IMG/VR virus record: IMGVR_UViG_2740892229_000022
DNA length: 35,130 nucleotides
From: a virus
Taxonomy: Duplodnaviria; Heunggongvirae; Uroviricota; Caudoviricetes
Reading direction: 5' to 3' (one strand)
Below, piece after piece: positions 18,001 through 24,000 of this stretch (position 1 is its first letter; every line of letters begins with the position of its first letter). The position numbers were made by a program.

Positions 18001-21000
18001 GACTGCCCCGCCAGAACCACAACAAAGTAATACTCCGGGTCTCTGGTGGCGCTGATTACTGTGCCTTCTCCATCCGACGGCTTCACCAACACAGGTGTGG
18101 TGACATCACCTTCCGCCGCAATGGCCTGCATCAGAGTATAAGGCGTGATGGCCACCGGGCTGCCAAATGGCTGCCACCCCTCCTTCAGTTTTTGTGTCAG
18201 CTTTTCCGCAAGGTCTGACGGCGACGCCGCCCTGACAACATCATAATGTTTANNNNNNNNNNCAACAGGTGTGCTCACATCACCTTCTGCGACAATCGCC
18301 TGAATAAGTGCTGCGCCATCATCCGTATACGAAGAAAACGGCCCGCCGTATGGTTGCCATCCTTCACGAATTTTTTGAGCAAGTGCATCAGCAAGGTCTG
18401 ACGGCGACACCGCCCTGACCACATCGTAGTGTTTAAATGCCATGAATCCTCCCGGCCGGGATAGTACTGAATCAGATAAAGAGCAGGCTGAAGTCCGGAA
18501 GTTACAGGACAATGGCAGAAGGGAGACTACAGCCCGCAATTCGAAAAAGGCCGCGCAGTTGCGCAGAGTGATTACTATGGGGTATTATTCGCCAGCTGAA
18601 ATATTACTTCACGTTTTATTGTTTATTCCTTGCCGCCCGCGTCTCCCAGCGCGGGCTTTTTTTTGTCCATAAGAAAGCCCCTCCGGAGAGGGGCTGAAGC
18701 CGCATTTCTGTATCACCATGAACATGGTGCCGGGTGCCTCCCGGTGAGTTCAGTCCGGTGTCCCTGAACCCGCGTATCTCGATCCAGATTGTCGTCAGAG
18801 ATGACACCTTATACACCAGTCGCCCCTCCGCACAGGGGGATTCACCATGCGAAATTTTTTTAACAAATGCTCAGTCTGACAGGCAACTGTCAACTGACTG
18901 AATTGTGACACAGATTACACTTGTTACCCACATACCACGAATCAGGTTATGCCTCAGTCATTATTAAACTGCACTTCAGCAAATCCGGAGCCTGATTCAC
19001 AGGTACTGGATTTGATTGTGACAGTCATTCCTGTCAACTGAGCACTTTGCAGTAGCGGTTGCAGATTCCAGCGACTGGTCCAGTATTCTTTCCCGGCTAC
19101 TTTTACTGTGAATGTATCGTTCTCATTATACTTGGAAAACTCAATTTTACCTTTAGCACAATCTGCCGCCATTGCATTAACAGAAACTAATGCAAATAAA
19201 ACCGCCATAAACATCTTCTTCATACTTAACTCCTTTATTCACCCGTTGTATATAAAGACTGTGACTTTCTGTTCAGAAACGCTGCTGCTGTATTACTTTC
19301 CCATAATGTATTGTTTATTTTTATAACGGGCCTGTCGCCAGTTATCTGACATTCTGGTTGACTCTCTTCATTCACAGCGCGAACAGAACGCGCCCCCTGA
19401 TGATGGCAATTCAGTATAACGGCCACAGTACCCAGTATCGCTGATATATTATTAAAGGATATTCTCCCCACTCTGACACCATCCTCTCCCCGATACTCCG
19501 GGAGCACATTGCTGATTCGCCCCCAGTTCAGAGTGAGGTCCACGTCTCCCGGCGTCATCGTATACACAGGAGCAGTTTCAGACAGTGCCTGACGAAATTC
19601 TCTCTGTATCTGCCTGAAGCGTAAGGCTTCTGCTGTGACAGTGACAAAACGCAGAACTGCTCTGGATGCATCTCTGGTCATTGTATTACCACTGAACTCC
19701 ATTAACGCCAGATATGATGAAACCAGTGAGTGACGACTGATTTGCATTCCGGAACGTTCCAGCGCTGCGACACGTTGCAGAGTGGTATAACTGCTGTCCG
19801 TTGTCATGGAAACCGTTGTCACACCGGGCACTGATATATGTGTAAAATCTGAAAAACGGTAGAAAGTATTTGTTGCCGTATTAACGAATCCGGCCACATA
19901 TAAATTATTTTGCTCAATAATCAGACGAAGATGGTCAAAACGCGCCTGATAGACATCAAGCCCTCGTATATCCACAGCAAAATAACTGCCCGGTGGGGTG
20001 TGGTTAATAACAGACACCGATGTGGTCCCCTGAGATATATGCTCAAGAGGAGTCGATATTTCTGTCCGTATACTATTTAACGAAGAGACATAACTTTGTT
20101 GAGTCGAAAAGTCTATCGTAAATTCCCGGGAATAGGATACCGAAGAAAAACCCAGTAACAGGCACAGTACCCATTTAAATAATATACACTTCATATACAG
20201 GTGTTCCTTTTGGCTGAAGTAATCAGCACCAGACCCGGCGCAGATATAAAAAAGGCCCGCAAAAGCGAGCCTGGTAAATAAATATGGCGCGTTGTACTGG
20301 ATTCGAACCAGTGACCGATTGCTTAGAAGGCAATTGCTCTGTCCGGCTGAGCTAACAACGCTGAATACCGATAATGGACCGCCATCGGGGGCTCGAACCC
20401 CGCGCAGCCAGCTTAGAAGGCTGGCGCTCTGTCCCGATGAGCTAATGGCGGTATGTGATATGGTGGCCCTTGCTGGATTTGAACCAGCGACCTGGCGATT
20501 ATGAGTCGCTCGCTCTCACCACTGAGCTAAAGGGCCGGGCGCAGGATAATAACGGTACGTAACTAATCCTGCAATATCATCCGTTCTGACTGGCTAAATC
20601 CTGAACTTCCCTGACCGTCTGCTCAAAACGTTCAGTCTCCAGCTCAACGCCAGTTGCACGACGCCCCAGCGCCAGTGCAGCTTTGACTGTCGAACCCGAC
20701 CCCATGAAAAAATCTGCAACCAGGTCACCCGGACGACTGCTCGCGCTGATTATCTGCTGCAGCATTTCTGCCGGTTTTTCGCACGGATGTTTCCCGGGAT
20801 AGTACTGCACCGGTTTATGCGTCCACACATCCGTGTACGGCACCTGCGCCGTCACGCCAAAATACCGCCGCAGATGCTTATATTCACTCTGCAGTTCCGC
20901 ATACTGCCGGTTCAGTGAAGTATACGTCTCCAGCAGCTGGTGGTGGGGCTTTTCCAGTTCACCGCGCTGATGCTTCTCTTCTGCCACCCGGGCAAACAGC

Positions 21001-24000
21001 GACTGTAATTTCAGATAATCGCTTTCGTTCGGTAGCTGCCACTGACTGGCACTGAACCAGTGCGACACCATGTTTTTCTTTCCTGTGGCATCCACTATCT
21101 GTTTTGCCGTTATCCCCAGGGCAGCACGCGCATCACGAAAGTAAGCAATCAGCGGAGCCATCACATGCTGTTTCAGTGCCCTGCCCTTCGCCTCATACCC
21201 GGCATCTTTCGGACGATACGGCCCCTGATAATGTTCCGCGAACAGAATGCGCTCTGTGGCGGGGAAATACGCCCTCAGGCTTTCCTTGTTGCACCCGTTC
21301 CAGCGTCCGGACGGCTTCGCCCAGATAATATGGTTCAGCACACTGAAGCGTTCACGCATCATGATTTCAATGTCAGATGCCAGGCGATGGCCACAGAACA
21401 GGTAAAGACTTCCGGCAGGTTTCAGCACCCGCCAGAACTGCGCCAGACACTGGTCCAGCCATTTCAGGTAATCCTCATCACCCGTCCACTGGTTATCCCA
21501 GCCCTCAGGCTTCACTTTAAAGTACGGCGGGTCCGTGACTATCAGGTCAACAGAATTTTCGGGTAACGACCGGATAAATTCCAGGCAGTCGGCGTTGATT
21601 AACTCACAACTGGATATTTTTACAGTATTAAACATGGATCATTAAGCCTGTCTCTGATAGGCTCATACCGCTTTTGCGCAAAGCAGATGGGCCTGAGGTT
21701 TGCTTGTGACCCCAACGCATGAGCAGATGGCTGGTGAGTGCCCCTAACACCCACCAGCCGCCCATTTACCACAAATAAAAAAGCCTTCAGGACTGAAGGC
21801 GTCTGTAACAACCAAACTGATAGTCTGCCAGACCCGCCATAACAAGCTGGGTCAGTATTAGCTGGCAGCGTTCGCGTGAAAGGTACGTATTCTGTGCAAT
21901 CTCCCCGACTGTCGCCGGTGCGGTGGCACTTAATTCATTAAACACCACTCTGGCGGTTTCTGTCATATCCTGCTGTTTCAGCATGTCTTTTTCCCTTTTC
22001 CGGTTAACGTGACACACCAATAACTCTTGTCGAAAAAGCCAGCAAGCTGAAAGACCGGTATTCACCGCCACCAGCGCGTTTAACGTACTGGTCCGATTTC
22101 AGGCATAAAAAACCCGCCTGACGGCGGATTTAAGCTGTGTGGCAAAGTAACCACTCTTAACATACTGACATACTTTTTGCGGACCGCACTAATCATTTTT
22201 TACTTTTTTAGCAGCCAGTCGTCCATCTCCAGTCTTACCCCCAGCACAGACAAACATCCGTCAATAAACCCTTCGGCTATCTGCATCTCAATTCGTATTG
22301 CTTTTTCGCTTTTCTTTCTCGTCCTGGCTATCTGTCTTTTTGATATTCGCAACAAATAATGAGCAATGAGAAGCGAATACTCCTCAGGTTTTTTCTGCTT
22401 CAGACGTGCAAGACAGTTTTCAATGATAAGTCCGTCATCATCGCAGCAGGCTGGACGTGGTTTAGTGGTAGATGGTAAAAGGCCTTTGAATCCGGCAGCG
22501 ATCGGAGAATAGTCCACCCCGGTGTTACCACTTGCCGCCCATGCCCCCCAGCGTTCAAGAACCATCTGAATATCACGCATCAACTTTCTCCACAAAAATC
22601 AGGACAGCACACCAATCGCCAGTGCGCGATCGATAAAACGAAATATCAGCTCCAGTTGGGAACCATACTTCTCTTCAAATGCCACGGTATCCGCATGCAG
22701 TTCGTCATGGTGTTTTCTGCACAAAGGCAACACAAAAAGGTCATGCGCTTTTGTACCCATTCCACCCTGACCATGGCCAATCAGGTGATGTGGATCGTCG
22801 GCTGGCTTACCACAACACGCGCAAGGCTGTGTCTTAACCCAGCGCGTGTACTTTTCATTAACCCAGCGACGACGTTTGGGGCGTAACATAAAAGACTCCG
22901 GCGACTCCGGATCCACTTTCAGCGCCAGCACCTTTTTCGCTTTATCCTGGATAATGCTGGTGGCAGGAACCGAAGGCACAAGGTCACTCTCCCGGGTGAC
23001 AGACGGCAAAACAGGCTTCGGTAATCTCAGGGCCTTACGGGCTGCACTTTCCGGTAAGGCATCCGCCAGGTCATTACGAACCAGCCACCAGCACAGTTCA
23101 GGCATTGTCACAACGTGACTGTCATCAAAACCGAGATCACGACGGACTACGGACAACACCCAGCGGGCACAGTTATCCGTTGCCATTGACTCCAGACGTT
23201 CCGTGAACTGATCGCGAAGCAGGTTATCGCAGTGCCAGCACAGACGGATTGCGCCCGGCGCGTGTCGCATTGTGGTCATGTTCTCGCTGTGCCATCCGGA
23301 ATGAGGCCACTGGCAGCCTTTTTCACGAAGTAACCAGCTCTCAAGGCATTCCACGCCACCAGCACGACGGATCACCGCCTCATGGCGGAACACGGCCCGA
23401 ACGGCAGGATCATCCGCCAGCGGTTGTGATGCTGCCGGAACGGCACCACTGGCAAAAGATGAATAACGTTCCGGCTCAGGCTCCAGCAGGACACGCCCCT
23501 GCATAAACAGGGGCATCAGCTCTGAACCGGGTCTGAACAAGACGATCCCCATACGCGGGGCAATTTCAGGGGTCAGCAGTGCTCTCACGGTCACCTCAGC
23601 GAACGGTATTGCATGAACGCAGGAGAAAAAATTCAGCCATCACGCAGTAAACTCTTTCACCAGCGTTTCAAACTGGCTTACCTGGCCTTCCAGTTCCGCC
23701 ACGCAATCCACCAGCTCATCCACCGCCTTTTGTGTGCGATGTTTTGCCTGCAGCAGATCACGAAGCGCCGGAGTAAGCTGCTTGCGGAGCGTATCTTTTG
23801 CCACGCTCGTTTTTTCCATCTGTTCAGCACAACGAAGCATCTCCTGCGCCTGCCGACGAAGTTGTTCCGGTGAAACAGTGGTGGTTCTGTTGTTCAAAAT
23901 AAACGCTCCGTTTTACTACCCGACATGCGGTTATTGCTGTATCTGCGCGGATTGCCCGGCGTCATGGGAGTGGAAAGAACCCGGGCACTCTCCTGGTCCA

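Follow-up and report, generated by a model that had tools for sequence, protein, structure and literature searches.

An intact methyltransferase gene in an Stx2 prophage

The virus record IMGVR_UViG_2740892229_000022 (35,130 nucleotides (nt); this whole stretch of DNA is referred to as the window) is a lambdoid prophage of the Shiga toxin 2 (Stx2) type in reverse orientation. We analyzed its DNA methyltransferase gene, found on the minus strand at 20577-21635, with respect to integrity, motifs, identity to M.EcoGII, orphan status, terminators, distribution and selection. An open reading frame (ORF) of 352 codons with an ATG start fills this interval exactly. Pfam N6_N4_Mtase (PF01555) matches residues 29 to 340 of the predicted protein (E 8.9e-44, 150.5 bits versus a cut-off of 26.7). 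Motif IV (DPPY) is found at residue 35 and motif I (FMGSG, FxGxG) at residue 310. The domain order is DPPY at the N-terminus, the target-recognition domain in the center and FxGxG at the C-terminus, which is the beta-class arrangement. Among the window ORFs of 80 or more amino acids (aa), only this one carries a DPPY motif. A preliminary description had named a DPPY-type methyltransferase at these positions and left the strand unstated; the assignment is confirmed, on the minus strand.

In many Stx2a phages only a 3' remnant of the gene is present, and one could suppose that the copy in this prophage is likewise a decaying passenger without function. We consider this extremely improbable. The frame is uninterrupted and encodes both catalytic motifs, and nine deposited Stx2 phages, which are independent records, have an annotated "DNA methylase" gene with the same DNA sequence (100% identity). 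In comparison with the phage P27 copy, dN/dS is 0.116 for the whole gene and 0.046 for the N-terminal catalytic part, indicating that the gene is maintained by purifying selection. It was concluded that 20577-21635 is a genuine, intact DNA methyltransferase gene of the Stx2 prophage.

Similarity to M.EcoGI and M.EcoGII

By BLASTP the window protein shows 94% identity (326/348) to M.EcoGII over the full length. This value is a lower bound because the M.EcoGII sequence was taken from a copy (Supplementary Table S1 of the SUPREM paper, PMC11551740) with optical character recognition (OCR) errors at NHHIW, RRRA and TKVP-Q. Three mismatches to the printed M.EcoGII look like such errors, as the natural homologs all side with the window protein. 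M.EcoGI and M.EcoGII are encoded by prophage genes of Escherichia coli O104:H4 C227-11 and methylate adenine in any context; the two enzymes, both non-specific, share 333 of 349 residues (95%) (PMC5778455). In the native lysogen they are unexpressed with no detectable methylation, and constitutive expression is harmful (PMC5778455; also PMC12707154). The M.EcoGII paper named phage 1720a-02 as the bearer of a very similar enzyme (PMC5778455). The window gene shows 98.3% DNA sequence identity to the 1720a-02 gene.

The recognition domain of this family has been modeled as a helix-turn-helix four-helix bundle (PMC11551740). Using the domain limits from that paper (residues ~160-237), we found four differences between the window protein and M.EcoGII in 78 residues (V181A, S191P, L235V and E236S). 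S191 is common to other natural homologs and to the engineered ancestor SUPREM, and the remaining three differences are conservative or at a position that varies within the family. SUPREM, at 70.6% identity (245/347) to the window protein, has remained largely non-sequence-specific in RNA assays (PMC11551740). From the 94% identity to M.EcoGII and the activity retained by SUPREM, we infer that the window allele would also methylate adenine in any context. The non-specific activity, the silence in the lysogen and the toxicity referred to here come from the literature on the homolog M.EcoGII.

The preliminary description had suggested that an orphan methylase could alter host methylation. For lysogens this finds no support, given the lack of detectable methylation by M.EcoGI and M.EcoGII in their native lysogen. 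In methylome studies of E. coli strains that produce Shiga toxin (STEC), homologs with 92-93% similarity are labeled "nonspecific" and no methylation is attributed to them in lysogens; the strains that carry them show only GATC, CTGCAG and CRARCAG motifs. The same description would have taken the lack of a new methylated motif attributable to the gene as a refutation. This reasoning is invalid for a family without a recognition motif whose members are silent in the lysogen, and for the same two reasons a methylome comparison of lysogen and cured strain would be negative even with a functional enzyme. In lysogen methylomes of this prophage, neither a motif nor a methylation signal is to be expected.

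These data also bear on the possibility that the enzyme is an orphan methyltransferase with a specific target sequence, which would place a new motif on the host chromosome and serve the lysogen as an epigenetic regulator. Regulatory orphan methyltransferases do exist in phages, M.EcoGIII from another Stx phage alters the expression of many genes, and the four recognition-domain substitutions relative to M.EcoGII could be counted in favor of a changed specificity. However, those substitutions are conservative or found in other family members, the protein shows 94% identity to an enzyme without specificity, the homologs are silent in lysogens with no extra motif in the STEC methylomes, and the gene is located in the late operon behind two terminators (described below). 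We regard such a regulator as very unlikely. The gene in this prophage is best labeled as an M.EcoGII-type non-specific adenine methyltransferase.

The late leader upstream of the methyltransferase gene

All features of the leader are on the minus strand. The late antiterminator gene Q is found at 22200-22595 (Pfam Phage_antitermQ PF06530, E 7.4e-53; annotated as antiterminator Q in LC567830); in deposited phages the Q gene is annotated as a shorter gene of 381 nt. A first intrinsic terminator after Q, resembling tR', is located at 22107-22127 (CCGCC-GTCA-GGCGG, followed by G and six T). It was read directly from the sequence and is conserved in four of four aligned contexts, but was not reported by the automatic scan; we think the scan perhaps missed it because the stem can be extended into the T run. 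Next is an ORF of 65 aa at 21787-21984 with a good Shine-Dalgarno sequence (AAGGGA) and a match to PHROG_331 (E 1.3e-42). It shows weak winged-helix (TrmB-like) similarity (Pfam TrmB, E 0.0076, below the cut-off), is annotated as hypothetical or as a TrmB-family regulator in other records, and travels with the methyltransferase gene. The terminator scan reported a second intrinsic terminator at 21775-21800 (GCCTTCAG-TC-CTGAAGGC plus a T run), which overlaps the 65-aa ORF at its stop codon and is also conserved in the alignment. The methyltransferase start lies ~150 nt downstream. The untranslated leader in between contains a conserved long hairpin of 47 nt at 21719-21765, predicted from an RNAalifold consensus of four sequences. 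The hairpin shows one-sided G-U changes only; with no compensatory pairs, its structure is a prediction and is unproven. A consensus scan for promoters on the minus strand found none between the terminators and the methyltransferase start.

The four sequences aligned were the window, P27 (Stx2e) and two non-Stx E. coli prophages (Q proteins of 229 and 273 aa; methyltransferase copies 95% identical). They are unrelated upstream of the first terminator and near-invariant from there through both terminators, the small ORF and the leader into the methyltransferase gene. The methyltransferase gene is always part of this module of terminator, 65-aa ORF, terminator, methyltransferase and tRNAs, which hardly varies behind Q genes of at least three different types and in contexts with and without stx. 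P27 has an extra ORF of 409 aa (L22) between Q and the leader module (positions 4623-5852 of the P27 sequence); nothing is found there in the window. The segment at 22128-22199, up to which the contexts diverge, appears to be specific to the Q type. Each Q works at a promoter-linked site of its own; the late promoter pR' and the Q-utilization site (qut) would therefore both lie in these ~70 nt that separate the end of the Q gene from the first terminator (22128-22199).

Of 5426 E. coli genomes, 2157 contain the leader module (21719-22127), at 4680 places in all, which makes it slightly more common than the methyltransferase gene (3636 places). Its near-invariance behind different Q genes and its occurrence in so many genomes led us to the idea that the tR'-like terminator, winged-helix ORF, second terminator and 47-nt hairpin form a dedicated control circuit for a toxic methyltransferase. 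By analogy with the controller proteins of restriction-modification systems, such a circuit may time or cap enzyme production. This is a tentative and rather doubtful proposal.

Orphan status and neighboring genes

The gene order on the minus strand is DnaB-type helicase (23894-25294), a DUF968/HNH protein (22599-23594), Q, the 65-aa ORF, the methyltransferase, three tRNAs, stx2A and stx2B. This agrees with the position between Q and a tRNA-stx cluster given in the preliminary description, and its observation that no restriction endonuclease gene is nearby is also borne out. We compared 26 window ORFs with Pfam, and 10 of these additionally with PHROGs and/or PADLOC; no restriction endonuclease or second methyltransferase was found among the scanned ORFs. 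For the ORFs of the head region (left of 5406), the integrase, the esterase and stx2AB, we used the annotation of the reference phage Stx2_112808 (45.9 kb); its methyltransferase gene is 100% identical, and no endonuclease partner is annotated there either.

Only two window proteins are nuclease-like: the DUF968/HNH protein and an HNH fragment adjoining a terminase gene (11310-11897). Both are ordinary, common phage genes. The DUF968/HNH protein was considered as a hidden endonuclease partner and rejected, as Q and the 65-aa ORF intervene; counting further against it, no DUF968 gene is annotated in the ~7 kb around the P27 methyltransferase copy. Membership in a type II restriction-modification system was likewise rejected, the flanks being Q, the 65-aa ORF and tRNAs with no endonuclease match among the scanned ORFs and none annotated in Stx2_112808. 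The orphan label for the methyltransferase holds.

The tRNA-stx cluster

Downstream of the methyltransferase gene and on the same strand, ARAGORN and Rfam identified a tRNA-Met(CAT) at 20461-20536 and two tRNA-Arg(TCT) at 20285-20451. The CAT-anticodon tRNA is called Met by ARAGORN and tRNA-Ile (ileZ) in RefSeq and the P27 record. If it is a tRNA-Ile, the CAT anticodon is presumably modified and reads Ile codons. The terminator scan found an intrinsic terminator between the tRNAs and stx2A (20253-20272). stx2A (19235-20194) and stx2B (18954-19223) were assigned from their ORFs and from the annotation of the identical region in LC567830; farther downstream are a sialate esterase gene and the lysis genes. 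A small RNA family, STnc100 (RF02076), matches just downstream of stx2B at 18665-18879 on the minus strand with 159 bits (gathering score 47).

Directly after the methyltransferase stop codon and 10 nt ahead of the first tRNA, a promoter-like sequence (TTGCAG-17-TATTAT, 20546-20574, minus strand) was read by eye; it is below the scan threshold. In phage Sp5, a tRNA promoter between tR' and stx2AB has been mapped experimentally (PMC7547250). The candidate site is consistent with an independent tRNA promoter of the Sp5 kind and would explain tRNA expression in the absence of the enzyme.

The tRNA genes raise the possibility that the natural substrate is RNA (the adjacent phage tRNAs or late mRNAs) and not DNA. 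M.EcoGII methylates RNA in vitro, and the methyltransferase gene is always linked to tRNA genes of the ileZ/argN/argO type. However, the initial rate of M.EcoGII is ~90-fold lower on RNA than on DNA (0.12 versus 11.12, same units; PMC11551740, Table S3), and the tRNAs apparently have their own promoter and are retained by phages that lost the enzyme. An RNA substrate is therefore given hardly any weight here.

Distribution and the 933W-type remnant

Of 5426 complete E. coli genomes, 2028 (~37%) have the methyltransferase gene, and a single genome can hold as many as seven copies. A full-length copy is present in 37 records of the phage collection, and ~200 others (933W/ArgO145 type) carry a 3' remnant only. 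The remnant consists of the last 111-153 nt, is annotated as a 50-aa "DNA methyltransferase" and lies directly beside the tRNA-stx2 block; in phage ArgO145 it is found at 3501-3653. The shared 111 nt show 88-96% identity to the window gene. The window gene is full length, whereas the remnant lacks DPPY, the recognition domain and most of the S-adenosylmethionine (SAM)-binding part. The remnant marks a recombination or deletion boundary.

The split between 352-aa proteins and 50-aa stubs has already been made in the STEC literature, in which a group of ~45-kb phages is described as having, between q and the tRNAs, a "transcriptional regulator and DNA methylase" (PMC10462455, PMC8456039). The preliminary description treated the gene as an open question. 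The gene belongs to a characterized family, and its location in long-tailed Stx2 phages, with Q on one side and the tRNAs on the other, has been described (PMC10462455, PMC8456039).

Proposed role of the methyltransferase

The gene product is probably a non-specific adenine methyltransferase of the M.EcoGI/M.EcoGII type that is made late under Q control, methylates progeny DNA and protects it from restriction. The gene lies in the late-operon leader of the lambdoid Stx2 prophage, behind the two terminators that follow Q. In the lysogen, these two terminators would block transcription and no enzyme would be made for that reason. After induction, RNA polymerase modified by Q would pass the terminators, and the enzyme would be produced alongside Shiga toxin, lysis proteins and virion proteins. 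The enzyme could then methylate replicating phage DNA at adenines of whatever context ahead of packaging. Upon entry into the next host, the N6-methyladenine (m6A) would blunt the many restriction enzymes that it blocks. Q-dependent read-through is the established general model in Stx phages (PMC7547250), and the terminator arrangement fits both this model and the lysogen silence published for the family. An anti-restriction role was proposed by the discoverers of M.EcoGII (PMC5778455) and repeated in a 2025 review (PMC12707154). The protection of progeny DNA against host restriction suggested in the preliminary description matches that proposal and may well apply to this phage; for the window phage, both the Q-dependent timing and the anti-restriction benefit are inferred.

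Several points weigh against this interpretation. The activity, specificity and expression of this exact allele are read from its homologs. We sought pR' in 22128-22260 by consensus scan and by eye and found no convincing sigma-70 site in that segment; the Q-dependence is derived from gene order and the terminators. In the 933W type, the most successful of the high-virulence Stx2a phages, the gene is reduced to the 50-codon remnant, and the methyltransferase is thus dispensable for spread. In the literature, we found no demonstration of hypermethylated virion DNA from a phage with this gene, nor of lower plating on restricting hosts after loss of the gene. DNA with dense N6-adenine methylation could also become a target of methyl-dependent (type IV) restriction.

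Phage DNA might also be hypermethylated for other ends, such as recombination-dependent replication, a packaging mark or late shutdown of host DNA. The m6A made by EcoGII is reported to boost RecA-mediated homologous recombination (PMC12403123). Some phage orphan methyltransferases serve packaging, for example P1 Dmt (PMC12707154), and M.EcoGI and M.EcoGII are toxic to the cell (PMC5778455). However, these roles lack direct evidence in lambdoid phages, and the 933W-type phages replicate and package well with the gene dispensed with. We consider such purposes unlikely, although less so than a sequence-specific regulator or an RNA substrate, and favor protection of the progeny DNA from restriction.

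The family has been characterized biochemically, M.EcoGII is sold as a reagent, and the homologs are routinely annotated in STEC methylome studies. The gene is a very common late gene, present in more than a third of the complete E. coli genomes, and its proposed role in the phage is a hypothesis.

Other features of the prophage

In the phage collection, Escherichia phage ASU11 (from E. coli O80:H2) is closest, matching 78% of a 25-kb query at 99.0% identity. The minus strand carries two different sets of terminase genes, one at 5406-8068 (DUF1441 and a GpA-type large subunit) and the other at 8896-11117 (Terminase_2 and a TerL-type large subunit). The HNH fragment at 11310-11897 accompanies the second set. 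About 5 kb of the terminase region is missing from the otherwise similar Stx2_112808. The double sets suggest mosaicism or what is left of a second packaging module. An ORF of 113 aa with a TonB C-terminal domain (PF03544, E 5.8e-15) is located at 12271-12612 on the minus strand between the lysis and terminase genes, and is an unusual passenger for this position. The window contains eight runs of ten N (at 8790, 11636, 12833, 13060, 13356, 14627, 17471 and 18253); one of them splits the sialate esterase (nanS-p/yjhS) frame into the apparent ORFs 16177-17469 and 17418-18539.

Comparison with known systems

YhdJ, CcrM, M.RsrI and the enzyme of PDB 8urk have the catalytic core in common with the window protein, but they recognize defined sites. 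PDB chains 9c3u/8urk match residues 8-115 and 281-333 (E about 1.5e-24); for the central ~165 residues, no match was found among solved structures. Assignment to the NCBIfam equivalogs of YhdJ (NF008572, score 112.9 versus a cut-off of 292) and CcrM (NF050803, 71.5 versus 830) was rejected on these scores; the matches are limited to the catalytic core. Dam enzymes belong to the alpha-class, with FxGxG first and DPPY last. A Dam type (GATC, e.g., M.EcoVT2Dam) was rejected on the beta-class motif order, and no Dam model was found among the family matches.

Among the late-expressed anti-restriction DNA modifiers of phages, the phage Mu Mom system resembles M.EcoGII in that it is silent in the lysogen, toxic when mistimed and thought to be broadly protective against restriction (PMC12707154). 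In chemistry and protein family Mom is unrelated to the window enzyme, and the parallel is one of mode of working, not of membership.

M.EcoGII itself shares with the window protein the beta-class motif order, a near-identical recognition domain, the prophage location and the lack of an endonuclease partner. It differs in length and C-terminal tail (349 aa ending in IV versus 352 aa ending in ASQNG) and by ~20 substitutions that are concentrated at residues 235-276 (linker helices). M.EcoGII comes from a prophage of O104:H4 C227-11, while the window allele is found on an stx2-carrying prophage. The same 352-aa "DNA methylase" is found in the long-tailed Stx2 phages Stx2_112808, ASU11 and 1720a-02, and as gene L24 in P27 (86% aa sequence identity to the window protein). 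These phages share with the window the order Q, small ORF, methylase, tRNAs and stx, with no difference of substance. The methyltransferase is thus already known: it is a further copy of the long-tailed Stx2 phage methylase gene, a characterized and widespread gene in a previously described position.

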